64,000 bases of DNA from Eledone cirrhosa (lineage: Eukaryota): contig OZ024743.1 of the NCBI GenBank assembly GCA_964016885.1, positions 319,920,001-319,984,000 of the forward strand, read 5' to 3'. Position numbers and translations under genes: made by a program. Of the stretch, positions 2,479 through 59,118 are shown piece by piece; position 1 is the stretch's first letter; each line of letters begins with the position of its first letter. The notes under the pieces are model-generated. The model had not been told where the DNA came from. It made no database searches and saw only the letters and a list, made by a program, of their open reading frames with translations.

Positions 2479-3581
2479 TATTGTCAATTTACTTTTCAAT
2501 TTACATATCATATCTACATGCATATAATACCAATACGCACACTACACATGTTAGCAGAGAACTGTCCGAATGGCGGATCTTCTGATAGTTTAGTCGACAT
2601 ATCTAATAGACTAAAACCTCTGAAAGCTGAGTTGAAAATTTAGATAGAAAAAGAAACACGAAAACAATTGATCGTGTACCGAAGGGACACAAAACCTACT
2701 ACAAAATAACAACTGATTGAATAGAAAAAAGATTAGAAACATATAGAGGAACACGGATAAATGTGATAACGAAAGAACGTTTTTATATATACAAGCTAAC
2801 AAAAATTAGAAAGCAGAAACAAACAACGCTGAAACAATTTAGATAAAAATACAATAAACAAATTTAGTGCCGAAATATAGCATGAAAACGGATTTACAAA
2901 ACATAAAGGAGAAACGGTGAGAAAAGCCACACCACGACCAAATCTCGACAAGGCTTGAAAGAGAAAAAGCAAGTCAAAGTTAATGACAAGAATGATTCAG
3001 AAGCTACGAACTAACGGGAAAAAACAGGATTCATTTTCACAATACACGACTAATGTTTGACCCCAAACAAATATAGGAACACGACAATGAAAACGGATCT
3101 TAACAACAAATGCAGAATGTACAACCAGCAAAATGACACGGTTAACTACATCATTTCCGGCTTCCCACATTTACCAAGTCTGAATATATAAACACTAGCA
3201 TGCCAAACTTTCGACATGAAATAGGGGAAGAAGAGATATAAGCATATAACAAACACGGTACATAACAATAAACAGGTCACTATAATCTGATAAAGAAATA
3301 AAGATAAAATTGTCAAGGATTGGAAAGACTGTTGCTCTTTATTTCAAAATTAAAATTTCAGGCGTGATTTTTATTTTATACTACATTAAAATCATTGTAT
3401 ATTGAAACTAATTTTACAAAATAGTTTTCGTATACAATTATTTTATGAAAAGTTGTTTCAATAAAAAGAGATTATAACAAGATCAATATTTGAAATGACA
3501 GTCGGAGAAAGGCCGTGCTAAGAGGAATGACAAAAAAATATATATCTCAAAAGTAATTCGTAAGCACTAAAATGATCTATC

Positions 3582-9119: not shown

Positions 9120-9123
<4 letters not shown>

Positions 9124-12100
9124 ATTATGAAGAGAGAAGAAACATTAGATATAATTAGTAATAAGTAACCTTTGAAGGGAAAACTTTCACCCACTCTATT
9201 AAAAATAACAAAAAACTGATTAGGGTCCCTATACAAACTTATAGGTCCCTAAAAGAAACATTTGAAAAGGATGTGTGGAATTCCTGCATTAAACCACTTA
9301 ACCGCGTCCTTCTCAAATGTCTCCTCACCCCAGACACCCCCTCCCCACCAAACATCTCTGTCCCCACCGCGCCGGAAACCACCACCCACCCAGACAACCC
9401 CTCCAACACCCCCATGGAATCGTGCAGCCTGGTCCCCAGGAGACGAAGAAGTGAGTGATTTCTTTTCCTCTTCTTTTAACTTATCAGCACCAACATGGCC
9501 AACATAAGAGTTGGATGTGTGAACGTACGCGGCCTGGGGATGTCCTGGAAACAGGGCAAACTCTTAAACGATCTCAGGTCGCGCACTATGGATGTAGTAG
9601 CCATTTGCGAGTCCAGGATCCACAGCGAGCGACATCTGGCCCACATCTTCGATGACTTTCAGATCTACGCATCTCTCTGTCAGCCGGGAGGTGGGGGCAG
9701 GGTTGCCGTTTTGCTGCTGAAACACCTGGACCTCGTAACAGAGACGGTACATCTGGATCTGGAGGCTCGACTGGTGGTCCTAGACGTTGACGGTGGTGAA
9801 GGTGGAGCCTTCAGGCTGGTGGCCGCATATGCCCCATCCGGGACACCGCGTCCAGACTTCTTCAAACGTCTAGAGACTTTTCTGGGAACGTCCCGCTCCT
9901 TGCTTTTAGTGGGGGACTGGAATGGAATCCTAGATGCACGTTGGGACTATGTGGGAGCATGTCCCTATAAGGGGGGGGGGGGGTAACAGCCTCAAACAGT
10001 TAATCGGCCGATTTGACCTGGCCGATAGATATCGACTAGATTTTCCGACTGTGCCACTGTGGACGTGGACTAATCGTAGCGGAACATCTAGATCGTACCT
10101 AGATAGGGCTCTAGTTAGAAATAAGGATAGGGACATGTTAAGCTGTCCACAAAGGTTCATGGTTGCCTATTCAGATCACAAACTAGTGACCTGCATGGTC
10201 AACCTTGATAGAACCCATAGACAAGGACCCGACTACTGGAAGCTGAACTTGTCCTTACCGACATGCAAAGCCTACAGTAGACGGATTAGAACTTTAGTTA
10301 AAGAACACTTGACAGGGGCCATTGTCAACAACAGATGGTGGTACACTCTCAAGAGGGCAGTTAGATTAGACTCGTTAGTTTTTAGTAAAGAATTAGCGTT
10401 AGATAGAAATAGGACCGAGAAGGAACAGGTAGATAAAGTAGAAGAGACAATTAGAAGTGGCAACGTAGCCAGTGTGATAGCAACGAGAACGGCCTTGGAC
10501 CAGTTCTTCGACGCAAAGCACGAGGGCTGCGTTGTCAGAAGCAAAATACGTGCTCTGGGTACGAGTGAGCCAAAGCTGTTAACTGAGTGACGGAGGGGAA
10601 AAGTGGAAACAAGTGCACGATTCGGTCTTTGAAGGACCAAGACGGACGCGTGATACGTGAGCCGAAGCAGATGTGCGCGGCCTTTCAGCGGCACTTTGAC
10701 GTATGGATTTCGGTCCATACCTCGACGGCCTACCGCGACTCTCCGACGGCAGGGTGAAGTTCTGCGAAAAGCCGATTTCAGCCGCTGAGATATAGGACGC
10801 GTTGAGCCAATGCGGCAAGCGCAAATCTCCAGGTCTCGACGGTCTACCTACGTATTTTACGTAGCAATACCGGACTTGTTCTCCAGTCTCCTGCAACTGG
10901 CAGCATGACGGGAGAATTCTGAGTTCTGTGACCAGGGACGTAGTCACACTAGCCAGGAAATTCGAGAATAAGGGGGATGACTTAGGCAACTTCCGGCCCA
11001 TAACTTTGCTAAAAACAGAGTTACAGATTTTGGCCAAGATGTTGGCAAAGAGGCTGGCGCTTGTCGTCGAAAACCTGGTGGGAGAAGCGCAGACATGCGC
11101 AATCCCGACCAGGTCTATACACGACAACCTCCACCTCATGCGATACATCCTAGAGAGGGTAGGGTGTAAACCCGGCTTCGGTGGGGCCTTGATCAACTTG
11201 GATCAGTCTAAGGCTTTCGGTAGGTTTGACAATCATTACCTGGATGCGGTGCTCGAGGCGGCAGGCTTCGGACCCGTGTTCAGGGACTGGATTGCTGCAA
11301 TGCACAACAACAACATCTGCTCAAGGGTCAAGGTGAACGGCTACCTCTCGGAGCCGTTCCATATCACGCCATCCATCCGACAGAGATGCGCTCTCTCCTC
11401 CCTTCTGTATGTACTGACACTCGAGCCACTACTGCGGAAGTTGGAGCTATTGCAGGGAATCCCTCTAGAACCGGAACCGGGACTGCAAAAAGCGGCATCG
11501 GCCTACGCCGACGACGTCACAGTAATGGTGTCGAGCCCATCGGAAATCAAGGAAGTCGGCACCTTACTGAAGGAATACGAAACGCTGACGGGAGCAAAAC
11601 TAAACCCGGACAAGTCTGTCGGTTTGCAACTCGGTACGTCGAGAGGCAAGCCGATGACGTCTGACAGCGTCGTTGGACGCTGGACGGACGGACCGATGAA
11701 ATTGCTCAGGGTCTGGTTCGGTCCAGACCTTCAGGTGGAGAAAAACTGGAACGAGGTGACAGACAAGGTGTTTGCACTCACCCAGAAGTGTGCCGAGTGC
11801 AAACTATCCTTGAAAGGTCGAGCAGAGGTGGCGAACACTTTTATAGCGTCCGTCATCTACTACCGCTTGACCGTCGTGCCTTGTCCAGCCAAAACAATCA
11901 CCAAAATGGAGCACGCGCTCTTCCAATTCCTTTGGAAGAAGCGGGATCCTTTGGTGAGAAGATCCATCTGCTGGAAACACCCTTTCAACGGAGGGATGGG
12001 GATGACGTGGCTGATGATGCGAAAACACGCACTCAGGCTGCGGCATCTCTACATATTTCTCACCGGACAACCTGACCGAGCTGCAGTCCTGGATCAAACA

Positions 12101-12986
12101 AAGACCGAGGAAAATGGGCGACTGGCACATCGAATGTGCTCAGGCGCTCACAGCCCTCTGGCAGGTGGACCCGGCGATCAGTGGAGACTCCACTTCGTCA
12201 TTCTATAGAGGGTTGATCCGCAGCAAGTGCGACGACGCGTTCGGAGAAACTCTAGGCGTAGAGGAAGACGAACTGACCCGTCTGTTCTGTAGGACCTTCC
12301 GCCCGGGACCGATGAACAACTTCCAAAGGTCCCTGGCCTGGCAGTGCTACCGACGAGCTCTACCAGTTCGAGACAAGCTCTACAGACATGGGCGCCCGGG
12401 CAGGGACCCTTCGAAAAAGATCTGTCCGGGTGACACCTATCCGGTTGACCACCGAGTCCATTGTCATGATCAAACCGCCACCCTCCTTCAAAAACGAAGG
12501 AGAGGCGGTTTTCCTTTGTGTGATAGCTATGGCGAAATAGGTTGTATGGTGGACGAGGTTAAAAGGGATGAGGTCAGGCACCTTTCTCTCCGGCCAACAA
12601 CTGATTCTTTTTTTCAAATACCACTTTGGAAGAAGAATCAGGATGGAGAGAGAGGTGCTGTACCCCAGCAAGTTTTATGAAAGGTGGGTGAAAGTGGCGC
12701 GAATAGCCCGAGTGAATGAGCCTTCTTTCTATATCAGCCTGTAGGTTGAGGAAAAAGAGGAAGAGAGGAAATGGGTACAAAGTCTTCGTACTCCTGGAGA
12801 CGAGGGTTGCACATTTTTTTTCGGGGGTATGTGTTACCCATATAAACTGTCTCCCCCTATTGGGGAAAATCGACTAACTTTTTAAATTGCATTTGTGATA
12901 ACATTTTACACGTTTTTTATTGTATGTAAACTTCCCCCTTTGTATTTGTCCCCTTCTTTTGTACCCCTGTGACTAATAAAGAAACA
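9120..12986 (+). mobile_element. Tx1/L1-clade non-LTR retrotransposon copy A (5'-truncated in ORF1; frameshifted ORF2 9495-12744)
   Basis: APE motifs NVRGL, AICES, GDWN, SYLD, SDH, YWKLN. RT motifs KSPGLDG, NFRPITLL, DQSKAF, AYADDV. The ORF1 tail (FEGKTFTH..LIRVP..YRSLKETF) aligns with the copy B ORF1 tail. AATAAA at 12975. Confidence 0.92.

Positions 12987-13070
<84 letters not shown>
12987..13070 (+). repeat. (TATC)21 tract joining copy A to copy B
   Basis: Perfect TATC repeat directly after aataaagaaaca. Confidence 0.97.
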
Positions 13071-13071
<1 letters not shown>

Positions 13072-16000
13072 CCCTCGATAGACGTGTGCCAGTTCGCTGG
13101 TAAGTTTTTGTTGATTTTCTAAGTAAGAAATAAAAAATTTATTGTTAAATTTGAGACTATTTTATAGCTTGACCTCACGTCTGGACTTTCAGACGGTGGG
13201 TCAACTCATCTTCACCCCTCCCTGGGGTGAAATTTTCGTTTGAAAACATTTCTGCGGTGAAAAAAAAAATTGTAATGTTGCATTTAGTCATGGACGCTGC
13301 GTCCAGTACTAGAAGTGGTGGAGAGGTGGTAAGAGTGTTAAGCTCGCACTCATCTCCTCTCACCACCTCATTGAAAGACGTCGAAAATGTCGTCAGTTTT
13401 GAAAACACGATGTCGAACGTTGATTGTAACATCAACTCTAACACAAACACCAATAACATGCAAAATATAAACAACACCAACCAGGACAACAACAACAACA
13501 ACAACAACAACAATAATGACAACAAAAAGAACAAGAACAACAGCAACAATGATAACAACAACACCACCAACAACAACAGCAACACGAACAACTCCACGAA
13601 CAAGGAAAATATTTCCTTTGCCCAAACTGCGAAAACAACCCTTGAATACCTGCCAGTAGACATAAGCAACGCTAAGGAGCTACTGCAGAAGCCAAAAAAT
13701 ACATAGTATACGTGGAAAATGGATCATTCTCGACCCCCCCACACCCGGAACTAAAAAGTCAGCTACTCCTAAACACAGTGATGTTTAGGTCAGTGTTAAA
13801 TAAAACGAAAAAACCAGCTCAACCATCACAGAGTGAGATAGAGCTGGTCTAAAAGATGTAACGTAAGACATTCTGTTCATACAAAAGGATAGACTCTATG
13901 GGAGTCTATCCATTCTCATGAAGGATCAGGACACGTCAAAAAAACTTTCAGTAAACCTGTTACATCCAACGCATACATCTTCTACCCTACGTACATGGGT
14001 AGAAGGTCACAGAAAATAAAAATACACACAATTCTTCCAACTATGGACATATGGTGGGTGTTGACAGGTTTTCTTGACCTGAACGATGACATATTAATAT
14101 CCATGGGAAAGGCATCGGGTGACGCGTTCAGTGGAACGGGCCTCGAACTTTTAGTTCAAATGAGGCCCAAAAGGATCGCCCAGATGCCCGAACGCGTCAT
14201 ACTGGATGACCGAACTTTTATAAACATTACCGTTGAGGGTAGGCGGCCCTCGTGTTACCTCTGTGGAACCAGAGGTCACCTGAAGGCTGTCTGTCCTCAA
14301 CTTAAAAAGAAAACTCCAATTCTGCCCACACCACCAACAACTACACAACCAACACAATCACCACCACGACCACTACAAAAACAACAACCACAAGTTAACA
14401 CAAAACAAAACACTGCCCCCCCCCCCATCACACACACACACTAAAAAAAACAATTTCCAAAACACCCGCACCGCAAACACTACCCGAAAATGTACCCCTC
14501 CCCTCAACACGGAAGACGATCCGCATTCGTCGTCAGACGAGGGGGAGCATTTCCAAAAAGTCAAAGGAAAGAAAAGAAAACATACCTCAGACACACAAAT
14601 AAAAACAACCCCTCCCCAAAACATAACACAGACATCAACACAAAAGAACACACAACAACAGCAAACAAAAAACACCACACAAAAATAAAATATGCATACA
14701 CATACATAAACACAAGAAACAAAAAACTGTTGAACATTATTTATAATAATAATTTGGTAAAAACCGAAGGGCCTAACTTCACCCACCTCAAAATGATAAA
14801 AGTCCCAGAGGACATATACAAAGCTTTAAAGGACAATTTTAAAGAGCACGTGCCCCCCGCCCTGCGTCGGACCCATTAACCGGGTCCTCCTAAAATAATT
14901 CCCGACTGCGCCATCTTGACTTGGGCAAACTGCAGCGGATCATCTAGGTCGTACCTAGATAGGGTCCTAGTTAGAAATAAGGATAATTTTAAGCTGTATA
15001 AAGATGCTCATGGTTGGCTATTCGGATCACAAATTAGTAACTTGCATACTCAACCTTGATAGATCCCATAGACAGGGACCCGGTTACTGGAAGCTGAACT
15101 TGTCCTTACCGGCAAGTAAAGTGTACAGGGACAGGATTAGTATTTTAGTTAAGGAGCGGTTGACGGGAGCGATCGTCAACAGCAGGTGGTGGGATCTCTC
15201 AAAAGGGAGATTAAAGTAGTTTCAATAGGATTTAGTAAGGAGTTAGCCTCAGATAGAAATAGGAAGGAAAGGGAGTTGCTAGATAGTGTAGAAGAGGCAA
15301 TTAGAAGCGGCGACGTGGCCAGAGTGCTAGCGTCGGGAACGGCCTTGGGCCGGTTCTTTGACGCGAAGCACGAAGGCTGCGTTGTCCGAAGCAAAATACG
15401 TGCTCTAGGAAACGAGGGGACCAAAGCTGTTAGCTGGGCCCGCGTGACAGAAACCAGAGGAGGGATTAGATCCACTATCCAGTCTTTGCGAGACCAGGAT
15501 GGACGGGTGATCCTTGAACCTAAGCAGATGTGTGAGGCCTTTCAAAGGCACTTTACCCGATTGTTCGGGAGGAGAGGGGGCCGGAAGGGGATGTGGACTT
15601 CGGTCCATACCTCGACGGCTTGCCGCGTCTTTCTGACGAGGAGGCGAAGTCCTGCGAGGGGGCGATTTCAGCTGCTGAGATAGGGGACGTGCTGAGCCGA
15701 TGCGGAAAACGCAAATCCCCGGGTCTTGATGGTCTTCCATACGAACTATATCTAGCTATGACGGACTTGTTCCCCGATCTCCTCGAGGCGGTCTACTGCA
15801 ACTGGCAACAGAACGGGAGAATTCCCTGTTCTGTGACGAAGGGCGTAGTTTCGCTAGTGAGGAAGGACGGGAACAAGGGGGACGAAATAAGTAATTTCAG
15901 GCCCATAACTCTGCTAAATGCAGAGTTAAAGATTTTGGCCAAGGTGTTAGCAAAGAGGTTGGCGTTTGTCGTGGGAAACCTGGTTTGAGATGCGCAGACA

Positions 16001-18065
16001 TGTGCTATCCCGTCCAGGTCCATCCACGACAACCTCCACCTTATGCGATACATTATAGAGAGTGTTGGGAACGAACCCGGCTTTGGTGGGTCCCTGATCA
16101 TCTCGGATCAATCTAAGGCGTTCGATAGAGTCGATCATGGTTACCTGGATGGGGTGCTAGTGGCGGCAGGTTTCGGACCCGTTTTCAGGGGCTGTATCAC
16201 TGCCATGCACAGCAGCCGCATCTGCTCTAGAGTCAAGGTGAACGGCTACTCTCGGAGCCGTTCGAAATCGCGCGATCCATCCGACAAGGGTGCCCTCTCT
16301 CCTCCCTTCTGTATGTATTGGCCCTCGAGCCACTGCTGCGGAAGTTGGAGTTGTTGCAGGGCATCACTTTGGAACCGGGATTGCGGAAAGCGGCGTCGGC
16401 TTACGCCGTTGACGTAACAGTAATAGTGTCGACCGCCTCGGAAATCGGGGCGATCGGCACCTTACTGGAGGAGTACGAAAGGTTTACAGGGGCTAAGCTG
16501 AACCGGGACAAGTCGATCGGGTTGCAACTCGGCACGTTGAGGGGCAAATCGATGCCCTCCGATTGCGTCGTCGGACGCTGGACGGAGGGCCCGGTGAAGT
16601 TATCGGGATCTGGTTCGGACCACACCTCCAAGTGGAGAAGAACTGGAGTGAGGTAACGACAGGGCGTTTGCACTAACCCAGAAGTGGGCCGAGTGCAAAC
16701 TATCCCTGAAAGGTCGGGAGGAGGTGGCGAAGACTTATATAGCGTCCGTCATCTACTACCGCCTGACCGTCGTGCCTTGCCCAAAGGAAACGCTCACCAA
16801 AATGGAGCGCGTACTCTTCCAATTCCTTTGGAAGAAGCGGGCCCCTTTGGTGAGGAGATCCATCTGCGTTCAACACCCTTCGAAAGGAGGGCTGGGGATG
16901 CCGTGGCTGCTGATGCGTAAACACGCATTAAGGCTGCGGCACCTCCAGGTATTCCTCACCGGTCAACCGGTGTGGGCACTGTTTGTGAGACTAATCTTTC
17001 CGAGACTCGTCTCACTCACCGAGCTGCAATCCTGGGTCAAGCAAAGACCGAGAAAACTGGGCGCCTGGCACACCGAGTGTGCCAAGGCGCTCACGGCTCT
17101 CTGGCAGGTGGACCCGGCTATCAGTGGAGACTCCATCTCGACATTCTATAGAGGGCTGGTACGCAACAGGTGCGACGACGACCTTGGAGAAGCCCTAGGC
17201 ATGGAGGAAGACGAACTGGCCAGCCTGTTCGGTAGGACATTTAGCCCGGGACCCATGGACAACTTCCAGAGGTCCCTGGCCTGGCAGTGCTACCGAGGGG
17301 CTCTGCCCGTCCGAGAAAAACTCTACACACACGGGCTCACGGGTAGGGACCCCTCGAAAAAGATCTGTCCCAGATGCGTGCGCGACAAGGAAACCGTCGC
17401 GCATGCATTGGTACACTGCTCGGGTGTCGCCGATCTGTTGGGCTATGTCGAACGACTGCTGTCAGGGGTGGGACCTATCCGGTTGACTACCGAGTCCATT
17501 ATAACGATCAAGCCGCCTCCCCCCTTCAAAAATGAAGGAGAGGCGGTGTTTCTGTGCGTAATAGCCATGGTGAAAGAGGTTGTATGGTGGACGCGTTTCA
17601 AATGACTGAGGCCAGACACCTTACTCTCTGGCCAACAACTGGTCCTTTTCTTCCGATATCATTTCGGAAGAAGGATCAGGATGGAGAGAGAGGTGCTCCA
17701 CCCCAGCCAGTTTTATGAAAGGTGGGTGAAAGTGGCGAGAATGGCCCGTGTGAATGGGCCTTCTCTCTATATCAGCCGGTAGATGAAAAAGATGGAAGAA
17801 CAAGGGAGAACCCTCTCTCTGTGCTCCCGAGGAGAAGTTTTGCACACTTTACAAAAAAAAAAATAACAAATATAAAATTAACAATAAAGTCCTCAATAGG
17901 GAGGAGGCATTTTGGGTGCGACCCCCCAAAACGCCTCCTCCCTATTGAGGACTTTATTGTTGATTTTATATTTGTTATTTTTTTTTTTTACTCGTTCTTT
18001 TGTGTAAACTCACCCATTTGTATTTGTCCCCTTCTTTTGCATCCTCGTGGCAACAAATAGAAACA
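13071..18065 (+). mobile_element. Tx1-clade copy B with apparent 5' UTR and ORF1 (gag-like, CCHC knuckle); ORF2 lacks the N-terminal part of the endonuclease
   Basis: ORF1 pieces ~13290-14879 contain poly-Asn and CYLCGTRGHLKAVC (CX2CX4HX4C). ORF2 resumes ~14900 at mid-APE, with RT motifs, C-terminal CPRC...H...C and stop at 17782. Confidence 0.92.

Positions 18066-18126
<61 letters not shown>
18066..18126 (+). repeat. (TATC)n tract joining copy B to copy C
   Basis: About 15 TATC units. The last ATCTA is shared with the element sequence atctactaccgc (microhomology). Confidence 0.95.
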
Positions 18127-18127
<1 letters not shown>

Positions 18128-19395
18128 CTACCGCTTGACCGTCGTGCCTTGTCCAGCCAAAACGCTCGCGAAAATGGAGCGCGCGTTCTTCCGATTCCTT
18201 TGGAAGAGGCGCGCTCCTTTGGTGAGAAGATCCATCTGCTGCCAACACCCTTCTAACGGAGGGCTGGGGATGCCGTGGTTGACGATGCGCAAAAACGCGC
18301 TCAGGCTGCGGCATCTCTACGTATTCCTCACCGGACAACCGGTGTGGGCCCCGTTCGTGAGGCGAGCCTTCCCACGACTCGTCTCGCTGACCGAGCTGCA
18401 GTCCAGGGTCAAGCAAAGACCGAGGAAAATGGGCGACTGGCACATCGAATGTGCTCAGGCGCTCAAAGCCCTCTGGCAGGCGGACCCGGCGATCAGTGGA
18501 GACTCCACTTCGTCATTCTATAGAGGGTTGGTCCGCAGCAAGTGCGACGACGCGCTCGGTGAAACTCTGGGCGTGGAGGAAGATGAACTGGCCAGTCACT
18601 TCGGTAGGACCTTCCGCCCTGGACCGATGGACAACTTCCAAAAGTCCCTGGCCTGGCAGTGCTACCGAGGAGCTCTACCAGTTCGAGAAAAGCTCTACAG
18701 ACATGGGCGCCCGGGCGGGGACCCTGCAAAAAAGATCTGTCCGAGGTGCGTGCGAGACGAAGAAACCGTCGCGCACGCATTCATACACTGCCCGGGCATC
18801 ACTGACTTGTGGTGCTATGTAGAACGACTATTGTCGCGGGTGGGACCGATCCAGTTGACCACCGAGTCCATTGTCATGATCAAACCGCCACCCTCCTTCA
18901 AAAACGAAGGAGAGGCGGTTTTCCTTTGTGTGATAGCTATGGCGAAAGAGGTTGTATGGTGGACAAGGTTGAAAGGGCTGAGGTCAGACACCTTTCTCTC
19001 CGGCCAACAACTGATTCTTTTTTTCAAATACCACTTTGGAAGAAGAATCAGGATGGAGAGAGAGGTGCTGTACCCCAGCAAGTTTTATGAAAGGTGGGTG
19101 AAAGTGGCGAGAATGGCCCGAGTGAATGGGCCTTCTCTCTATATCAGCCTGTAGGTTGAGGAAAAGGAGGAGGAGAGGAAAGGAGTACAAACTCTTCGTA
19201 CTCCTGGAGATGAGTGTTGCACATTTTTTTTCGGGGGTATGTTTTACCCATATAAACTGTCTCCCTCTATTGGGGAAAATCGACTAACTTTTTAAATTCC
19301 ATTTGTGATAACATTTTACACGTTTTTATTGTATGTAAACTTCCCCCTTTGTACTTGTCCCCTTCTTTTGTGCCCCTGTGGCTAATAAAGAAATA
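18123..19395 (+). mobile_element. Tx1-clade copy C (5'-truncated, open frame to stop 19154)
   Basis: YYRLTVVPCP...CPRCVRDEETVAHAFIHC...LYISL*. The 3' UTR is nearly identical to copy A; (TATC)6 follows. Confidence 0.95.
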
Positions 19396-19419
19396 TATCT
19401 ATCTATCTATCTATCTATC

Positions 19420-22400
19420 TCTCTTTTAAACGACATTAGGTCACACAGTATGGATGTGATAGCCATCACCGAGTCCAGTATCCACAACAGGCAGCAAGTA
19501 ACCACCATCTTCGACGACTTTGAGACCTACGCATCTCTCTGTCAGCCAGGAGGTGGAAGTGGAGTGGCTGTCATGTTTCTGAAGAACATGGACGTCGAAG
19601 TACAGCAAGTACACTTGGACCCAGAGGGTAGACTGGTAGTCCTAGACGTGAACAGTATTGGAGGTGGGGCCTTCAGACTGGTGGTCGTTTATGCCCCGAC
19701 CGGGCAATCGCAATCACGGCCAGACTTCTTTAAGCGTCTAGAGTCTTTTCTGGGAACGTCTCGCTCCTTACTTTTAGTGGGAGACTGGAATGGTATCCTA
19801 AATGCACGATGGGACTATGTGGGAGCATGTCCCAGTAGAGCGGGGTGCAACAGCCTCAAAACTTTAATCGGCCAATTCCAACTGGCCGATAGGTATCGAC
19901 TGGATTTCCCGACTGCACCACAGTGGACGTGGGTAAACCGCAGTGGGACATCTAGATCGTATTTAGATAGGTTCTTCATTAGAGAAATGGACAAGGAGCT
20001 GTTAAGCTGTCCACGAATGCACATGGTTGCCTACTCAGATCACAAGTTAGTCGTCTGCTTAGTCAACCATGATAGAATACATAGACAGGGTCCCGGATAC
20101 TGGAAGCTGAACGTGTCGTTGCCGGCACGTAAAGCTTACAGTGAACGGATAAGTAGATTAGTCAAGCAACAGTTAACGGGAGCCATCGTCAACAATAGAT
20201 GGTGGTACTCTCTCAAGAAAGCAATTAGAATAGAATCGATAGGGTATAGCAGAGAGTTAGCCTTAGAGAAAAACAGAATAGAAAGAGAACTAGTAGCCAA
20301 GGTAGTGGAGGCACTAAGAAGTGGCAACGCGGCTAGAGTGTTAGCGTCGAGAACGGCACTGGACCAGTTCTCAGAAGCAAAACACGTGCTCTAGGAAACG
20401 AAGGAGCGAAACCTGTCAGCTGGGCCCGAGTGGCGGAGGCAAAAAAGTGGCAACAAGTCCACGATTCGGTCTTTGAAAGACCAAAACGGGCGCGTGCTAC
20501 TTGACCCCAAGCAAATGTGCGCGGCCTTTCAGCGGCACTTTGCGCGACTGTTTGAGCAGAACTACGGTGAGCCGAACGGGGCAATGAACTTTAGTTCATA
20601 CCTCGACGGCCTGCCGCGTCTCTCAAACACGGACGCGGAGTTCTGCGAAAGACCGATCACGGACACTGAGATACGGGATGCTCTGGGCCGCTGCAGGAAA
20701 CGCAAGTCACCCGGTCTAGATGGTCTAACCTACGAATTTTACATAGGCATGCCGGACTTGTTCTCTGGCGTCCTCGAAGCCGTCTACTGCAATTGGCAGC
20801 AGAACGGGAGAATTCCCAGTTCTGCAGGCAAGGGCGTAGTAACGCTGATCAGGAAAGACGAGAACAAGAGGGACGAAATTAACAACTTCAAGCCCATAAC
20901 TCTGCTCAACACAGAGTTAAAGATTTTGGCCAAGGTGCTAGCGACGAGGTTGGCGCTTGTCGTCGAGAATCTGATAGGGAAAGCGCAAACGTGTGCAATC
21001 CCGACCAGGTCCATACACGACAACCTCCACCTCATGCGATACATCATAGAGAGGGTGGGTAGTAAACCCGGCTTCGGTGGGGCTTTGATCAACTTGGATC
21101 AGTCTAAGGCATTCGATAGGGTCGACCATCGATACTTGGAAGCGGTTCTCAAGGCGGCCGGTTTCGGTCCCGTGTTTAGAGGATGGATCGAGGCGATGCA
21201 CACCAGCAGCTGCTCGAGGGTCAATGTGAACGGCTACCTATCGGAGCCGTTCGCAATCACGCGTTCCATTCGGCAGGGATGCCCTCTCTCCTCCATTCTG
21301 TAGGTATTGACTCTAGAGCCACTACTGCGGAAATTGGAGGTGTTGCAGGGCATCCCCCTAGAACCGGGACTGCGCAAAGCGGCGTCGGCTTATGCCGACG
21401 ACGTAACGGTTATGGTGTCGAGCACCTCGGAAATCGGGGTGATCGGCAACTTACTGAAAGAATACGAAACGCTGACGGGAGCAAAACTAAACCCAGACAA
21501 GTCTGTCGGTTTGCAACTCGGTACGTGGAGAGGCAAACCGATGACATCCGACAGCGTCTTTGGACGCTGGACGGACGGACCAGTGAAATTGCTCGGGGTC
21601 TGGTTCGGTCCAGACCTCCAGGTGGAGAAAAACTGGAACGAGGTCACGGCCAAGGTGTTTGCACTCCCTCAGAAGTGGGAAGAGTGCAAACTGTCCTTGA
21701 AAGGTCGAACGGAGGTGGCGAACACTTTCATAGCGACCGTCATCTACTACCGCTTGACTGTCGTGCCCTGTCCCCGTGAACACCTCGCCAAGATGGAACG
21801 CATGCTCTTCCAGTTTCTGTGGAAGAAGAAGGCTCCGCTGGTGAGGATATCCGTCTGCTGTCAGCACCCTTCCAACGGAGGGCTGGGAATGCCGTGGCTG
21901 ATGATGCGCAAACATGCGCTGAGGCTGCGGCATCTCCAGGTATACCTCACCGACCCCCCAACTGGTGTGGGCACCGTTTGTGAGAAAGGCTTTCCCACAG
22001 CTCGTCTCGCTAATGGAGCTGCAGTCCTGGGTGAAGAAAAGACCGAAAACGATGGGCGCCTGGCACATTGAATGCGCTCAGGCGCTCACAGTCCTCTGGC
22101 AAGCGGGCGCAGCAATCAGTGGAGACTCCACTTCGACATTCTATAGAGGGATTGTACGTTACAAGGGCGACGACGTGCTCGGAGAGACTCTGGGCGTCGA
22201 AGACGATGAGCTCACCAGTATGTTTGGTAGAACTTTCCGCCCGGGACCTATGGACAACTTCCAGAAGACCCTGGCCTGGTAGTGCTACCGAGAGGAGCTC
22301 TACCGGTTCGTGACAAGATCTACAGGCACGGACGCCCCGGCAGGGATCCTTCCAAGAGGACGTGTCCAAGATGCGCGCAGGACATTGAAACAGTCCTGCA

Positions 22401-23015
22401 CGCAAATGTACACTGCCCGGGCGTAACCGACCTGTGGAACTATGCAGAACAACTGCTGTCGCGTATGGGACAAATCCAGTTGACTGCCGAGTCCATAGTA
22501 AGGATCAAACCGCCAGTCTCTTTCAGAAACGAAAGAGAGGCGGTTTTCCTCTGTATTGTTGCGATGGTGAAAGAGGTTATATGGAGGATGAGATTGAGAG
22601 GACTGAGGACAGATGCCTTTCTCTTCGGACAATAATTGATTCCCTTCTTTAAGTATCACTTTAGAAGGAGAATCAGAGTAGAGAGAGAGGCACTGCACCC
22701 CAGTAAATTTACTGAAAGGTGGGTGAATGAAGCGAAAATGGCCCGAGTGATTGGGCCTTCTCTGTTTATAAGCCTGTAGGTTGAGGAAGAGAGCAAAAGG
22801 AAGAAAGGAGCACTTGCACAACACGCTCCTCGATTTGAGGGTTGTTCTATCGACGGTGTATTAAACAACCCATTTGTGGCGCCTCCCCCCTATTGGGGAT
22901 TTCGATTGTTGAAATTGTTTGTTTTTATATTTTTTACACGACTGTATGTAAAATCACCTGCATGTCTTTGTATTGTCCCCTTTCTTGTTGCGCCCTTGTG
23001 GCTAATAAAGAAACA
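19420..23015 (+). mobile_element. Tx1-clade copy D (truncated about 20 codons into ORF2; stop 22779)
   Basis: APE (GDWN, SYLD, SDH), RT (QGCPLS, YADDV) and zinc knuckle CPRC..H...HC. Begins right after (TATC)n at 19396-19419. Confidence 0.95.
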
Positions 23016-23091
<76 letters not shown>

Positions 23092-23128
23092 AATCTATCT
23101 ATCTATCTATCCATCTATCTATTTATCT
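23016..23128 (+). repeat. (TATC)n tail of copy D
   Basis: About 28 units with a few substitutions. Confidence 0.95.
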
Positions 23129-23349
23129 ATTACTAAAGGTCTGTGATTGCTTGCTGGCTTGCTTGTCTGCGATGCAATAGAGCCAAAAGGGTGCATAATG
23201 GGAAAAAGTTTCGCGTAAATTGAAGCACTGGTTCCCGAGATATGGGTTTTCTCCTGGTAGCTCCGTAAACAGAGATAGAAGGATAGAGAGAAAGAGCTTG
23301 TGGTTCTGAGAGAGTAGATCGTAAGAGAGTCATAGAGAGAGGAAGAGGA

Positions 23350-24825
23350 GACAGATTTTTTGCCTACATTGGTTTTAACGTTGAGTGAGAAGGGAGGAGA
23401 GAACCAGATAGTTTGTCTATTGTTACGCTTTGTTTTCTTATTACTGTTGCTGTTAGTGGGAGAGTAAGTGATAGGTTGCGAGAAGCCGCTGTTAGCTAAC
23501 ACCGTGTTTTTGTAGGGTGACGCTCTGTCAAAGATAGCCTTATTAGAGGAAAGTTTGAGACTCTAGTACTGATATTATTCAGCTTCTACCTTCAATTAGT
23601 TAGGACTTAGAATAACAGTAGTTACCAACCTCTCTAGCGTAGATTTCTTAGACATTAATTTAGACCTTCGCACACACACCTACAGACCCTTCCGTAAGCT
23701 TAAAGAAAAACTCAATTACATTCACAAGGACTCATGCCACCATACCATTTGTTTTAGAAACTTCGTAAATAATATCAGTACTAGAATCTCAAACCTCTCC
23801 TCTAATAAGGCTATCTTTGACAGAGCGGCACCCTACTATAACACAGCGTTAGCCAACAGCGGCTTCTCACAACCTATCACTTACTCTCCCACTAACAACA
23901 ACAGCAATAAGAAAACAAAGCGTAACAATAGACAAACTATCTGGTTCTCTCCTCCCTTCTTACTCAACGTTAAAACCAATGTAGGCAAACAATTTCTAGC
24001 CCTCTTAGATAGACACTTTCCCATAGGGCATAAATACCGCTCCATCTTTAACTGACGCAAAGTAAAACTAGGATACTTCTGCGCTAAGAACTTGAAGGCC
24101 CACATCACCAACAGCCCTAAGAGTAACACCCACCAGGGTGCTCTTGCCCTAAGCCCGAAGCTTGTCCCCTTCAACAGCAATGCAACACACCCACTGTAGT
24201 TTATGAAGCTGTGGTCACTTCCAACCGACCAAATCAACCACAGGAGGTCAAATCCTATGTGGGTATGGCGGATGGCCGATTTAAGGAACGCTTCCTGAAC
24301 CACCAGTCGACCTTTAGGTACCCGGACAGACGTTCATCCACGAAACTCGCGAGCCACGTATGGTCCCTCAAGGGCTCAAGTATAGACTACTCCATTCAAT
24401 GGAAAGCCATCACTAAGTCTAAGCCATACGCAAGGGGCAATCCGTCTTGTGGACTATGTATTGATGAACGAATAAATATTCTAAAGAGATTACGCAATAG
24501 CGACTGCCTAAACTCAAGAAATGAATTCTTCACACGTTATCCACACGTCTCGAAACACCTCTTACATAACTACAAAGCTCCGGATTGAATTACAACAACA
24601 TCCTAATTTTCTTATCAACTAGAAACTTTCGGACTTTCGCAGTTATCTCCCTTACACCTCTCGCACGCAATTTAGTATTGCCTGAGCGAAGTGACGGTTT
24701 CTGCGCATGCGCGTTCGTACAGTTGTCCTTCCTCTTCTGTATAACCATGTCCATTACGAGCTGAGGATCCACTAATATGAAACAATTGTTCTCGGTATGG
24801 TGAACTAACTGTTGTGTAACCACTT
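23350..24825 (+). mobile_element. Naiad-type Penelope-like element 3' part with an inverted 5' segment
   Basis: VDFLDINLDL...NLSSNKAIFDRAAPYYNTALANSGF...IWFSPPF, and GIY-YIG SYVGMADGRFKERFLNH...CGLCIDE...LNSRNE. 23350-23578 is an inverted copy of ~23770-23990. Ends in (TA)n. Confidence 0.88.
24757..24794 (+). ncRNA. Degenerate type I hammerhead ribozyme
   Basis: cgag-CTGAGGA-tccactaatat-GAAA-caattg-TT-ctcg. Stem II is poorly paired; homologous to 45849-45886. Confidence 0.5.
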
Positions 24826-25685: not shown

Positions 25686-25901
25686 AAAGCAAAGTTGCTG
25701 TCATCAATGGACCAAGTATAATAACTTGTGATCATCTTGCTGAGTTCGGTAACATTAAATCACAAGATCATTGTAAAGAAAAGTGTGTTGTTAATAAATG
25801 CACAGCAATGGAATACGCTCAATTTTACTCCCAATGTAGTGTCACAGACAATAAGCCAAAGAAATACAGCTTGATTGGTGATGATTTCTGGAAATTTACT
25901 G
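25686..25901 (+). CDS. Putative internal host exon encoding a PAN/apple-like cysteine domain
   Basis: Acceptor ttttattttctag, donor G|gtagat, 216 nt, phase 1-1, no stops: ESKVAVINGPSIITCDHLAEFGNIKSQDHCKEKCVVNKCTAMEYAQFYSQCSVTDNKPKKYSLIGDDFWKFT. The C-x3-C-x4-C-x11-C spacing resembles PAN domains. Confidence 0.6.
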
Positions 25902-26199: not shown

Positions 26200-28603
26200 C
26201 CCGGGACAAAATTATACATTTGACAAGTCATACAAATTATACCACAAGGGCACCAGTTAGAAAGCTAGACGAGGCACATAGAAAAGGCATCACGACCAAT
26301 TCTTCAACCCTAAGCACGAAGGCTGCATTGCCAGAGCCAAGGCACGTGCTCTAAGACACCAGGGGATGAAAGCCGTTCAATGGGCCCGGGTGGTGAAGGC
26401 ATGGCGTGGCAACAAAGTCGTGGTCTTTGGCGCATCACAGCGAGCGCATGTTAGTCGATCCCCAGCATGTGTGCGGCCTTTCAGCTGCACTTCGTTCAAC
26501 TGTTCATGAATGAGTATTTGCGGGCAGGACCATGGAATGGACTTGAGTCCCTATGTCAAAGGCCTGCGCGATTCTCGATGACAGAGGCGGAGTGCTATGA
26601 AAATCCGATAACTGCCGTTGAAATACAGGAGGTAATGACTGGCTTCGTGAGCAAAATATCGCGGACTTATGTACGTATGCCTTACATATACGGTGACCTT
26701 TTGTCAGACGTCTACTGCAACAACTGGCATCTGAACGGAAGAATTTCCAGTTCTGTGACTTGAGGATTAGTGGCGTTGTTGAGAAACACCCTAAGAAAGG
26801 GGTCAACGTATATAATGTCAAGCCCATAACTCTGCTGAGTTATTAGAAAAAGGTTGACGCTTGTCATCGGGAGTCTGGTGGGAGAGGTGCAGACATGCAC
26901 CATTCCAAACAGATTCATCTACGACAACCTCCACCTCATGCGATACATCATGGAGAGGGGAGCTGAGGAACCTGGCACGGTTGGGGCCCTGATCAATTTA
27001 GATAATTCGAAAGCATTTGATATGGTCGACCATCAATACCTGGCGGTTGTACTCAGGGCGGCCGGCTTTGGGCCCGTTGCAGAGGGTGAGTCGCTTCCAT
27101 GCACAATGACATCAACACTGTTGTGAGAGTAGATGGCCCCCTTTCGGAACTGTTCATTATTAACCCGGAAAAGGGCGGTGAATTGGCAGTGTCGGTAGAG
27201 GGTTGGACGCTATGCTTTCTAGCATAGTTACGTCCCTTTACAGTCTGAGTTCAAATCCCGCTGAGGTTAACTTTGCCTTTCCTCCTTACGGGGTCGATAA
27301 AATAAAGTACCAGTAATGTACTTGGTAATTGCTGGTCTTGTGCCTAAAGTAGAAACAATTATTAACCCGGAAAAGTCGCTGGGCTTGCAGCTCGGTCCAT
27401 CTGCGGTCCATCTGCTGCCAGCACCCTCCACGCGGAGAGCTGGGTATGCTGTGGCTAATGATGCGCAGACATGCACTGAGGCTGCGACATCTCCAGATAT
27501 GCTGCCTAAATGGTGAACAGGTGTGGTCTCCGTTTATCAGACGGGCCTTTCCGGAGCTCGTCCCTTTGACTGAGCTGCAGTCCTGGGTCAAGAAGAGACC
27601 AAACTGGGTTACTGGCACCTAGAATGTTGCCAGGCACTCCCTGCTCTTTACCAGGCGGGCAATGCTATCAGTGGAACTTCCAATCTCGAGTTCTATAGAG
27701 GATTAGTGGTGGGTAATTGCGACGACGCACTCAGAGAGGCTCTGGGTGTCAACGAAGTCGAACTGACCAGTGTGTTCCGGAGGACTTTTGAGCCGGGACG
27801 ATGGATAACTTCCAGAAATCCTTCGCTTGGCAGTGCTACCGAGGGACACTGCCGGCTGATTCGAGATAAACTCTACAGGTATGGAAGTGTTGCCCGAGAT
27901 GTGCGCAGAGTAACGAAACCGTTCTGCACGCACTCCTCCAATGTCCGAGCATTACTGACTTGTGGAGTTATGTCGAACAGCTGTTGTCGCGTGTAGAATG
28001 GATCCGGCTATCGGCCGAGTCCATAGTAAAGATCGACCCACCGTCTTCTTTTGGCCAGGAAAGGCAGGCAATTTTTTTCTGTCTGGTGGCAGTTGCCAAA
28101 GAGGCTGTATGGTGAACCAGATTGAAAGGACTGAAGACTGACACTTTTCTCTTCGGCCAATCCCTCATCAACTTTTTCGAATTTCTCTTGGAAAGAAGGT
28201 GAGGGTGGAGAGAGAAGTGCTGCCTCCGAATACATTTGCTAAAAGGTGGATGAATATGGCCAGAATAGCCCGCGTGAGCGGGCCTACTCTGACCATCCAC
28301 CTATAGGCTGGCTAACTTGAGGAGGAAAAGGGTGCCCCTCCCACCGGTATCCTAAAAGAGCCGGGCGGTTCAGGATTAGTGGGGTACATGAGTCACCCCT
28401 GGGTCCTCCCCCTCTATTGGGGAATTTATTTTGTTATATTTATGCATAGTTTATTTTATATTTTTATATCTTCATTGTTAACTTAGTCTTGCCATTGTGC
28501 ACTTTTACTCGAGCTTATTGTAAACCCCACTGTCCCTGTCTTTATATTGTCCCCTACATGTCGGCCCTTGTGGCCAATAAATGAAATCATTATTATTATT
28601 ATT
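26200..28603 (+). mobile_element. Older, internally deleted Tx1-clade copy E with (ATT)n tail
   Basis: MCAAFQLHF, IYDNLHLMRYI, GALINLDNSKAFD and LMMRRHALRLRHL are homologous to copies A-D. Ends ggccaataaatgaaatc(att)n. Confidence 0.85.
27174..27357 (+). mobile_element. tRNA-derived SINE inserted in copy E, with 18-bp TSD
   Basis: A-box-like tggcagtgtcgg, B-box gagttcaaatcc, body ctttgcctttc..ggggtcgataaaataaagtaccagt. TSD attattaacccggaaaag at 27156-27173 and 27358-27375. Confidence 0.9.
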
Positions 28604-28680
28604 ACGAGGTCGATAAAATAAAGTACCAGTAATTCACCGGTGAATTGCTGGCCTTGTGCCAAACGTAGAAACAATTATTA
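28604..28680 (+). mobile_element. 3' half of the same SINE family
   Basis: ggtcgataaaataaagtaccagt...ggccttgtgccaaacgtagaaacaattatta. Confidence 0.85.
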
Positions 28681-28681
28681 T

Positions 28682-28833
28682 CCTAATATCACCCCTGGGG
28701 GAATTCTGTTGTTTGTTTATTTGTTTTGTTAACTTTTTTTTAGTAGATTGCTTGTAAATCCCACTGGCCTCGTCTTTGTATTGTCCTCTATGTTCTGCCC
28801 TTGTGGCCAATAATAAAGAAATCATTATTATTA
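28682..28833 (+). mobile_element. Tx1 (E-type) 3' UTR-only fragment with (ATT)n tail
   Basis: tgtaaa...ttgtcc...gcccttgtggccaataataaagaaatcattattatt; matches 28400-28600. Confidence 0.8.
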
Positions 28834-29443
28834 CTTGCAGAAAAACCACCCTTCAGGTGGTTTTCTGCTGGCATGTCTATTGTACATATTGATATTATAC
28901 GCAAATATATATGCCTGTAGATATGCTACGTCAAATAAAATCGTAATTGACAATATGCACAGAAATTGAAGAGTGTTACAATGTCTCCCGTAATCAGTAA
29001 TCCATGATACATTAAAAAAAGACGATATTATATATAAACTGCATTACGGTGAAATGTAATGAAAACGAAAAAGGAGAAAATTATCGACAGATATATAAAC
29101 GTTATGATATAACGATGTAAATATATGGCCGTTTATATAAGCGATATATGAGATAGCGTCCGTTATATCATAACCGGAAGTATTGACATTTGAAAATTTT
29201 AAAAGAAGTGAATCTTAAAATACGTAATCATTATATATAAGAATATTTATGTTTAATCAACAGCTACGAAATTTAGTACATAAATTATGTAATATTCATT
29301 CATTATTTATTCAAAGTAATCCAACTTATTTTACCAACGGGATTAAAAAATATAAAACGGACGCTGTCCCGCACTACTCCCATTATTATAGTATAGATTG
29401 TGAATTTGATATCTTAGTCACAGTCACGTATAGACACAAAAAT

Positions 29444-38505: not shown

Positions 38506-38629
38506 CCTGGAGTTGCGACCGATAGATAGTACTAGCAACTGGAAAGACCGACGGAAACATTGTTTCCTCGGTCCGATTTGACGAAAGTCGATCGAAAAGG
38601 ATATATATATATAGAGAGAGATATATATA

Positions 38630-39500
38630 TTTCTTTATTTGCCACAGGGGCGTACACAAATGGGACATTACAAGACGTGACGGCGGTGGTTTTACATAAA
38701 AATCATATAACTTTAACATTAATAAATAACAATAAACTATATATAATAAAATAACAATTGAAATCCCCATTCGGTTTTTTTTTGGGGGGGGGGACACGTT
38801 ACTGTGGGGTTGTTTTACACCCCGTGGATAGAACAACCCTCAATACCAGGAACACGTTTTGTAGGTGTTCTCGTCTTCCTCAACCTACAGGTTTATATAC
38901 AGAGAACGCCCATTCACTCGGGCCATTTTCGCCACATTCACCCCCCTTTCAACGAATTTACTGGGATGTAGCACATCTCTCTCCACTCCCACCTTCCTTC
39001 TGAAGTGGTACTTAAAGAAGGGGATAAGTTGTTGTCCGGAGAGAAAGGTGTTTGCCCTCAGTCCTTTTAACCTCGTCCACCATATTACCTCTTTCGCCAT
39101 AGCCACAGACAGAGGAAAACCGCCTCTCCTTCATTCTTGAATGAAGGCAGCGGGGTGATCCTCATGATGGACTCGACTGACAACTGGATGCGTCCCACGC
39201 GTGGCAATAGCTGTTCGACATAATTCCATTGGTCAGTCACACCTGGGCACTGAACAATTGCGTGCAGAACAGTTTCGAAGTCCTGCTCGCATCTTGGACA
39301 GGTCCTTTTGGCAGGATCTCTGCCAGGGCGTCCGTGCCTGTAGATTTTGTCTCGAACTGGTAGAGCTCCTCGGTAGCACTGCCAGGCCAGAGACCTCTGG
39401 AAGTTATCCATAGGCCCTGGACGGAAAGTCCTCCCAAACAGACTGGACAGTTCGTCCTCCTCCATGCTTAGAGTTTCCACGAGAACGACGTCGCACTTAT
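38630..39500 (-). mobile_element. Tx1-clade copy F (5'-truncated)
   Basis: MDNFQRSLAWQCYRGALPVR...CPRC...LYINL*. Its 5' junction abuts the (TATC)n tail of fragment G. Confidence 0.93.
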
Positions 39501-39515
39501 AGAGATAGATAGATA

Positions 39516-39598
39516 TATTTTTTTATTAGCCACAAGGGCGCACAAGAAATATAAAATATAAAACCAAATATAAAATATAAAAACAAACAATTACAACA
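39516..39598 (-). mobile_element. Tx1 3'-terminal fragment G
   Basis: Minus strand ...gcgcccttgtggctaataaaaaaata-tatctatctatc, sandwiched between two (TATC)n tracts. Confidence 0.8.
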
Positions 39599-39610
39599 GA
39601 GATAGATAGA

Positions 39611-40770
39611 TTTCTTTATTAGCCACAAGGGCGCAACAAGAAAAGGGCACAATACAAAGACATGCCGGGGATTTTACATACAGTCGTGTAAAAAATATAA
39701 AAACAAACAATTTCAACAATCGAAATCCCCAATAGGGGGGAGGCGCCACAAATGGGTTGTTTAATACACCGTCGATAGAACAACCCTCAACTCGAGGAGC
39801 GTGTTGTGCAAGTGCTCCTTTCTTCCTTTTGCTCTCTTCCTCAACCTACAGGCTTATAAACAGAGAAGGCCCAATCACTCGGGCCATTTTCGCTTCATTC
39901 ACCCACCTTTCAGTAAATTTACTGGGGTGCAGTGCCTCTCTCTCCACCCTGATTCTCCTTCTAAAGTGATACTTAAAGAAAGGAATCAATTGTTGTCCGG
40001 AGAGAAAGGCATCTGTCCTCAGTCCTCTCAACCTCGTCCACCATATAACTTCTTTCACCATAGCCACCGTACAGAGGAAAACCGCCTCTCTTTCGTTTTT
40101 GAAAGATTCTGGCGGTTTGATCCTTACTATGGACTCGGCAGTCAACTGTATTTGTCCCATACGCAACAGCAGTTGTTCTGCATAGTTCCACAGGTCGCTT
40201 ACGCCCGGGCAGTGTACAATTGCGTGCAGAACTGTTTCAATGTCCTGCGCACATCTTGGACACGTCCTCTTGGAAGGATCCCTGCCAGGGCGTCCGTGCC
40301 TGTAGATCTTGTCACGAACCGGTAGAGCTCCTCGGTAGCAGTGCCAGGCTAGGGACCTCCGGAAGTTGTCCATAGGTCCCGGGCGGAAAGTCCTACCAAA
40401 CATACTGGTGAGCTCATCGTCTTCGACGCCCAGAGTCTCTCCGAGCACGTCGTCGCCCTTGTAACGTACAATCCCTCTATAGAATGTCGAAGTGGAGTCT
40501 CCACTGATTGCTGCGCCCGCTTGCCAGAGGACTGTGAGCGCCTGAGCGCATTCAATGTGCCAGGCGCCCATCGTTTTCGGTCTTTTCTTCACCCAGGACT
40601 GCAGCTCCGTTAGCGAGACGAGATGTGGGAAAGCTTGTCTCACAAACGGTGCCCACACCGGTTGGGGGTCGGTGAGGAATACCTGGAGATGCCGCAGCCT
40701 CAGCGCATGTTTGCGCATCATCAGCCACGGCATTCCCAGCCCTCCGTTGGAAGGGTGCTGACAGCAGACG
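39611..40770 (-). mobile_element. Tx1-clade copy H (5'-truncated, open frame 40733-39846)
   Basis: Near-identical to the 3' part of copy D including the UTR. The 5' junction is preceded by tctatc on the element strand. Confidence 0.95.
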
Positions 40771-58653: not shown

Positions 58654-58874
58654 ACACGTCTGTATTTTAGAGGGACCATGCCACCAAAAACCTTGTCAGA
58701 ACAATGGAAGTTGTCATCCGTTTCTTTTGGGATATAGGTGCGTATGTAAAGACGGTTTCAGCGGAAAGAATTGCCAAACAAGTAAGTCACACTGTAAATG
58801 TAAACAAAATAAAAGTAATTTACAATAAACATTTGTATAATTTCAAAATTACATATATATTATATGAAAGCGTA

Positions 58875-58875
<1 letters not shown>

Positions 58876-58921
<46 letters not shown>

Positions 58922-59045
58922 TTCTTATTTTATTTTTATATTTTGTTATTGCCTCCTCCTTATTGAGGACGCCTTTTTGTGTAAACTCCCCCCTTTGTAC
59001 TTGTCCCACTTTTGATGCCCTAGTGGCAAATAAAAGAAACATATC

Positions 59046-59118
<73 letters not shown>

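Follow-up and report, generated by a model that had tools for sequence, protein, structure and literature searches.

An L1-group retrotransposon family, probably of the Tx1 clade, that appears to insert into TATC/GATA repeats and stacks head to tail

The window analysed here is a stretch of 64,000 nucleotides (G000:C4:319920001-319984000) in the 3.0-Gb genome of an octopod-like mollusc, and all coordinates are positions in it. Between 9174 and 23130, self-comparison revealed four head-to-tail copies (A to D, plus strand) of a retrotransposon without long terminal repeats (non-LTR) encoding an apurinic-like endonuclease (APE) and a reverse transcriptase (RT), with (TATC)n at the joins. We regard it as likely that they belong to an L1-group, probably Tx1-clade family which inserts into TATC/GATA in a fixed orientation, where a GATA-preferring APE nick and pairing of a UAUC(U) RNA end prime target-primed reverse transcription (TPRT). 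That the family targets TATC at all is very probable, given the 5' flanks of dispersed copies, their target-site duplications (TSDs) and repeated insertions in duplicated regions.

Organization of the four-copy array

The tracts directly follow the 3' ends of the copies, which read AATAAAGAAACA in A and D, AATAAAGAAATA in C and CAACAAATAGAAACA in B (Table 1). Open pieces of the copies match the Pfam domains APE (PF03372), RT (PF00078) and zf-RVT (PF13966). Identity in the 3' untranslated region (UTR) amounts to 93.8% between A and C, 65.4% between A and D, 57.4% between A and B and 57.0% between B and D, and three subfamilies, A/C, B and D, are therefore distinguished. The sequence-only reading of this stretch, which described four copies in the same orientation from at least three subfamilies, with differing 5' endpoints and internal junctions made of (TATC)n straight after a conserved 3' end, is borne out in these respects: B is full-length at its 5' end, C starts from 18126 and D from 19425, and the internal tracts start at 12987, 18066 and 19396. 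It also held that simple segmental duplication did not produce the array. This origin was indeed rejected, with UTRs 57-94% alike and distinct ends, although the region itself is segmentally duplicated on C4.

The array had been placed from 9120 onwards, and this boundary was corrected: copy A begins at about 9166-9174, 46-54 bp later. The interval 9120-9165 was rejected as part of copy A and belongs to another element, of which it is a 46-bp terminal repeat, present twice in P3, one of the paralogous regions described below. It adjoins (TA)n and is found in P1-P3 as two direct copies spaced 530-594 bp (594 bp in P3), and a look-alike forms an inverted pair, 644 bp apart, in locus L045. The 5' end of copy A is therefore without a TATC flank. 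Copy A is 89% identical to the intact copy Y of P3, from Y position 1823 on. The first open reading frame (ORF1) of copy B possesses a single CCHC knuckle (14253-14294), and the tract of B and the start of C share ATCTA, an overlap of 5 bp. The A-B junction is also present in three paralogues, and the distal tract (23016-23130) is likely the original target. As a separate observation, the 3' UTR of copy B contains a 136-bp inverted repeat (93%, 17853-17988), which exceeds the hairpin length of other B-like copies.

5' flanks of dispersed copies

A dispersed sample was compiled from the top 30 loci of each of four 3'-UTR searches and eight further matches, with 30 loci extended. Without the window and its paralogues, the sample comprised 119 copies. 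A total of 20 were dropped with 5' ends outside the locus or without a clear position (7 TATC-type and 13 of a related ATT-tailed lineage), leaving 84 TATC-type and 15 ATT-type copies; for 12 copies, and later for L100 too, the 5' junction was taken from refined chaining. Copies were scored TATC-positive when a 10-mer with at least nine matches to (TATC)n was located within 12 bp of the 5' junction, a score reached by 0.4-0.8% of random non-element positions.

TATC was found directly 5' in 64 of the 84 dispersed TATC-type copies (subfamily D 24/34, C 25/28, E 15/22), always in the orientation of the element, with GATA, ATT and AAT each at 0/84. The sequence-only reading had taken (TATC)n to be a target and not a tail alone, and had named a majority of copies with unique 5' flanks as the outcome that would speak against it. 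The majority is TATC-flanked, and the TSDs and paralogue insertions described below point the same way. Under a stricter definition, in which a copy is preceded by another 3' end of the family, 30 of the 84 are stacked and 27 of these are TATC-positive. Of the unstacked copies, 37/54 score positive for TATC; the median length of their perfect run is 9 bp, and the target there is often just two to three units. Full-length 5' starts carry TATC in 20 of 26 cases (paralogues and one match without a 5' end excluded). The (TC)n repeat is occasionally found beside TATC (L046, L054).

Since dispersed sets favour close relatives of the queries, a position-ordered sample was added, consisting of 20 loci drawn at intervals of about five from the first 100 pattern matches on C1, with 19 junctions resolved. 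Eleven of the 19 are TATC-positive, one more has 8 bp of TATC after the tail of its neighbour, and seven have none. The 5' microhomology at 10 junctions averages a suggestive 1.4 bp against 0.31 expected. We also observed a 3'-UTR fragment of the family within the second open reading frame (ORF2) of another copy, without TATC context (L201, about 3355-3570).

Target-site duplications

Anchored TSDs were defined as matches of at least 10 bp that start no more than 4 bp from the element end, finish at the 5' junction and share at least two non-repeat bases. They were detected in 11 of 83 copies (L093, a tandem duplicate, was removed), whereas 40 shuffled pairings gave 1.45 on average and never more than 6. 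A looser anchored criterion with one shared base separates weakly (23 versus a shuffled mean of 11.5). The anchored test took the place of an unanchored search (11/84 at 12 bp or more), among whose matches L005, L046 and L093 were artefacts. Clear duplications are present in L023 (TATCTCAAATGT), L100 (TATCTGTAAC) and L006 (TATCTATATCTAC), and also in L110, L004, L121 and L125. They are about 10-20 bp long, start at TATCT or TCTAT and run through imperfect repeats, and the TATC periodicity continues 8 bp upstream of the duplication. In copies with clear TSDs most of the apparent tail is duplicated target, and one or two units can serve as a site.

Genome-wide scale and stacking

A total of 13,441 exact matches to the 3'-end pattern GGCWAATAAAGAAANNTATCT were found genome-wide, and none to the reversed control. 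Neighbour statistics were obtained from the first 100 TATC-type ends on C1. Adjacent ends no more than 7 kb apart form 24 pairs, where 1.9 are expected under uniformity, and all 24 are on the same strand; among pairs 12.5-100 kb apart, the same strand is shared by 12 of 23. Stacks are present on many chromosomes. A neighbour within 7 kb was found for 42 of the 100 ends, so stacking is common, yet most copies stand alone. The self-stacking that had been proposed from the array is thus upheld by the strand agreement of close neighbours, but applies only to about a third to two-fifths of the copies (30/84; 42/100). The arrays may in addition act as safe harbours, as that reading proposed. The stacks are later reshaped by deletion and occasional tandem duplication.

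Repeated insertion in paralogous regions

Beyond the window itself, C4 contains at least four further copies of the region (P1-P4), at about 319.9-320.9 Mb (L171-L192) and in either orientation. The divergence of P1 from P2 is 0.2-1.6%, and the two may be uncollapsed alleles; both have a deletion from B into D. The distal tract and its flank are common to all five regions, and the elements upstream of it differ: C and D in the window, X and Y, both full-length C-type elements, in P3, and another D-type element in P1, P2 and P4. Copy D of the window differs by 3.1-3.5% from copies at unrelated sites, versus 5.6-6.2% from the D-type elements of P1, P2 and P4, and copy Y is 0.5-1.6% from dispersed copies. 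Divergence between the window and its paralogues amounts to 1.2-3.4% in the flanks and in the older A and B; for the flanks and older elements of P3 it is 1.2-3.7% from other paralogues and 2.0-3.4% from the window. TATC tract length varies among the paralogues. In P4, moreover, the two tracts found without these insertions at window positions 58875 and 59042 are occupied by a D-type element of 5.3 kb and a B-like element of 5.7 kb (1103-aa open frame), and the first of these sites is also empty in L115. The duplicated regions hold different, younger elements in the same tract, and insertion was therefore repeated; independent insertion after duplication appears to be the simplest reading of these comparisons.

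Anatomy of an intact copy

Copy Y (P3, locus L188) is intact, with 5,842 bp and two open frames, and represents a family element of about 5.84 kb made up of ORF1 with one CCHC knuckle, ORF2 with APE, RT and zinc finger domains, and a 3' UTR. Its ORF1 product P0201 (643 aa stop to stop) has one CX2CX4HX4C motif at 349-365; Pfam places zf-CCHC below the cut-off (E 0.24) and detects neither Transposase_22 nor RRM in this protein, and a homologue search with ORF1 returned nothing at E 0.001 or better. The ORF2 product P0200 (1150 aa stop to stop) matches PF03372 at 27-232, PF00078 at 516-760 and PF13966 at 981-1037. The RT motif YADD is present, and so are the APE motifs NVRGL, ICES, YAP, GDWN, SYLD and SDH, which we take to be catalytic from established knowledge of the L1 endonuclease. 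Single-sequence structure prediction of the endonuclease was of low confidence (mean pLDDT 40).

At the 3' end, AATAAAGAAA is followed by a subfamily-specific dinucleotide (TA, CA, GA or TC) and then by TATCT. At least 5 bp in TATC phase are found at the 3' end of 83 of 91 copies, many of which have a non-TATC 5' flank. The C-type 3' UTR folds no better than shuffled sequences (z -1.27).

ATT-tailed lineage and clade membership

The ATT-tailed relative ends in AATAAATGAAATC(ATT)n, with 3,268 exact ATT-type 3' ends genome-wide (examples in L143-L170 and L203-L210). It served as a reciprocal control: ATT lies 5' in 6 of its 15 resolved junctions and TATC in none (0/15). This lineage also stacks (L157, L158), and two of its copies run into (TTC)n instead (L153, L165).

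An RT tree was constructed from 33 rows, which included neither subfamily E nor a named Tx1 or L1 reference. The five TATC-type rows form a clade (99/98), as do the three ATT-type rows (99/95). The union of both is weakly supported (82/0), without a resolved order beside Argonauta P0202 and P0001. The two lineages share 80-82% identity in the RT and 53-60% in the endonuclease. Aligned to the L1 hairpin, an endonuclease element whose role is described in PMC1919474, is a segment that reads WSNRSGTSRSYLD in P0200 and WTNRMGSSRSYID in the ATT copy L206, and the hairpins of the two lineages differ by few residues.

The best named protein matches come from Argonauta hians (61-67%), which makes an octopod host probable; others are from fish at 37-43% RT identity, and all are hypothetical proteins. 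The best solved relative of ORF2 is human L1 ORF2p (E 3e-38). Cluster look-ups gave no Tx1-named protein among the relatives, a search of the ESM Atlas gave generic RT clusters only, and a metagenome scan gave only distant relatives (24-40%). Features of the L1 group (L1/Tx1) were all found, namely an N-terminal APE, a central RT and a C-terminal zinc finger in ORF2, together with variable 5' truncation and TSDs and without LTRs. ORF1 has the gag-like CCHC knuckle of type I ORF1 (PMC5203782) and not Transposase_22, as expected for the Tx1 clade. Site-specific APE elements are described as confined to the Tx1 and R1 clades (PMC6007223). Judged from the domain layout, the type I ORF1 and this clade restriction, membership in the Tx1 clade is probable.

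Mechanism and alternative explanations

Under the proposed mechanism, the bottom strand would be nicked in or beside 5'-AGATA-3', with a second nick 10-20 bp on. The transcript would read past AATAAA into the repeat, so that its 3' end could anneal to the nicked strand, and reverse transcription would be target-primed from the nick in the GATA strand with the UAUC(U) RNA end pairing there. The insertion would split one target into two, which is the outcome seen, and later TATC elements of any subfamily could therefore land beside older ones. The TATC left on both sides of each insertion would thus explain the mixed-subfamily stacks. The endonuclease alone would do the choosing here, or pairing of the RNA tail may share or dominate the choice; a swap of endonucleases between TRAS1 and SART1 is reported to have swapped their targets (PMC1919474).

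Several observations weigh against insertion into TATC as a complete account. No TATC is present at the 5' junction of 20/84 dispersed and 8/19 position-sampled copies; some of these junctions result from deletion or nested insertion, and others may be off-target insertions. Inside pure tracts a TSD is unreadable. The polarity of filled and empty paralogous sites rests on divergence and intact frames, with L112 and L114 unreadable at the empty site, and for any single site exact deletion between tracts or gene conversion may apply. L093 and L163, with a shared start point, derive from one 5'-truncated copy by tandem duplication, which suggests unequal exchange between flanking repeats or assembly error, and stacking is therefore not all due to insertion. 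With hairpins so nearly alike, RNA pairing could still be the main selector.

This last point leads to an explanation in which the endonuclease has loose specificity and cuts A/T-rich DNA, and extension is confined to those nicks that pair with the (UAUC)n transcript end, so that a new tail would bring a new target. The match of tail and target in both lineages (TATC with TATC, ATT with ATT) agrees with it, together with the hairpin loops and the 83 of 91 copies in TATC phase at the 3' end, and a like idea has been put forward for RTE elements (PMC6007223). In RTE elements, however, the overlap as described is one to a few bases and the flanks are seldom tail-like (PMC6007223, PMC13295347). 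In the present family the TATC periodicity extends upstream of the TSD, beyond RNA pairing, and the endonuclease is more diverged between the lineages than the RT, and we consider targeting set mainly by the RNA to be unlikely.

A far less probable explanation is that the repeat is a tail only, seeding microsatellites in the style of the snake CR1-L3 elements (PMC8303610), and that arrays and 5' TATC arose later when tails recombined or underwent conversion with each other. Junctions formed by deletion, and copies duplicated in tandem, do exist (B to D in P1/P2, L020, L218, L093) and tract lengths differ among paralogues, but ectopic recombination would swap flanks and not duplicate 10-20 bp, adjacent elements in a stack differ in subfamily and in 5' end, and unstacked copies in unique DNA possess 5' TATC (37/54) and site-specific TSDs (11/83 versus 1.45). 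Tail-only seeding was rejected on these 5'-flank, unstacked-copy and TSD results, which largely refute it. An origin of the array through faulty assembly or segmental duplication is the least credible explanation, with almost no weight given to it. The further occurrences of the region on C4, the possibly allelic P1 and P2, and the C-D junction, which no contig of the sequencing run spanned, would fit it; the divergent UTRs and distinct ends of the four copies, the recurrence of the A-B junction in three paralogues and the stacks on many chromosomes all contradict it.

Relation to known systems

TATC is a well-supported target, and a new one for a known type of retrotransposon, the microsatellite-specific APE elements, with Kibi, Koshi and SART/TRAS as precedents. 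The teleost elements Kibi ((TC)n) and Koshi ((TTC)n) and the crocodilian (TTCC)n and (TTTC)n families are described as members of the Tx1 clade (PMC4494074, PMC3812793) and are likewise two-ORF elements of the APE type in microsatellites. The likeness lies in the mode of insertion. Their targets are pure pyrimidine repeats, whereas TATC/GATA is used here, in an octopod-like mollusc, with more than 13,000 copies and frequent mixed-subfamily stacks. The specificity criterion given in PMC4494074, one repeat type in more than 20% of flanks, is exceeded several-fold (64/84 5' flanks, 83/91 3' ends).

SART1 and TRAS1 (telomeric repeats) and Waldo and Mino (ACAY and AC repeats) of the R1 clade (PMC1919474, PMC3812793) show the same APE-driven, fixed-orientation insertion into a short tandem repeat with regeneration of the target. 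They differ in clade, and the present family is interstitial and has human L1 ORF2p as its closest solved relative. The RTE-clade long interspersed elements (LINEs) with microsatellite-like 3' ends and the seeding snake CR1-L3 elements (PMC6007223, PMC13295347, PMC8303610) share a microsatellite 3' end whose first bases match the TSD, and the element multiplies the microsatellite, but they are seldom flanked by the repeat 5', in contrast to about 60-75% here. Tandem insertions of SINEU-3/Tx1-Mar and of Utopia (PMC4494074, PMC4640811) also result from sequential insertion at a regenerated target, giving head-to-tail copies, at DNA transposon or U2 gene targets instead of a microsatellite.

In O. 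vulgaris 80 L1-Tx1 families covering 56 Mb are reported (PMC13282606), and TATC/GATA is mentioned neither in the text nor in one supplement of that paper. Full-text literature searches listed no TATC/GATA-specific Tx1 family; Repbase and Dfam, outside their scope, may well catalogue the family, whether or not its target is recorded there, and figure 3 and the supplements of PMC4494074 list the targets of other Tx1 families, which may bear on novelty.

The microsatellite-specific APE retrotransposons, a small set so far, gain from this family a new target and a new host phylum, at large scale. Its TATC and ATT lineages, close to each other in the RT (80-82%), differ in target and possess intact copies, and they offer a ready swap system for the respective shares of the endonuclease and the RNA 3' end. 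The clustered GATA microsatellites and head-to-tail LINE arrays of octopod assemblies would be explained, which bears on marker design and repeat annotation. More speculatively, and on balance improbably, octopods may harbour an uncatalogued radiation of Tx1-like LINEs with recent switches between TATC and ATT targets and almost unchanged hairpins, the choice being made largely by the RNA 3' repeat and each lineage farming its own target. If so, the family would be a main source of the GATA repeats in this genome and a naturally re-targetable insertion system.

Other features of the window

Table 1. Retrotransposon copies, repeat tracts and further stacks in the window
Feature	Position	Strand	Description
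Copy A	9174..12986	+	5'-truncated in late ORF1; ORF2 (APE-RT) disrupted by frameshifts and deletions; A/C-type 3' UTR ending AATAAAGAAACA
A-B tract (tail of A, 5' flank of B)	12987..13071	+	(TATC)21
Copy B	13072..18065	+	Full-length 5' end (AGACGTG at 13080); internal deletion near 14899; broken ORF2; B-type UTR
B-C tract (tail of B, 5' flank of C)	18066..~18125-18127	+	(TATC)15
Copy C	18126..19395	+	Young, 5'-truncated; 1.9-2.4% from dispersed relatives
C-D tract (tail of C, 5' flank of D)	19396..19424	+	(TATC)6-7
Copy D	19425..23015	+	Truncated just within ORF2; retains APE, RT and C-terminal region, with stops; UTR of D type
Distal tract	23016..23130	+	Imperfect (TATC)n, common to four paralogues
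ATT-tailed family	26294..28835	+	Decayed copy ending AATAAATGAAATC(ATT)n at ~28606; second short 3' piece at ~28690-28835
Second stack	38600-40770	-	D-type copy 40770-39611; short 3'-end piece ~39600-39516; TATC x3; E/F-type copy 39501-38630
Third stack	58875-59420	+	(TATC)11 set in unique DNA, followed by a short 3' piece of B-like type, (TATC)n at 59042-59138 and a truncated E-type copy at 59143-59410

Probable exons were found at 25688-25900 and 58670-58780, with a PAN domain (E 5e-4, below the cut-off) and an EGF domain (E 1e-7). They suggest a tandemly duplicated PAN/EGF gene with stacks in its introns; the stacks of the window apparently lie among PAN/EGF-coding exons, in introns or between gene copies. 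Directly downstream of the array, 23131-24800 is occupied by a decayed element with a 226-bp inverted segment (23355-23579 versus 23768-23993). Its frames, which have no Pfam match, resemble the C-terminus of a Penelope RT and a GIY-YIG nuclease.

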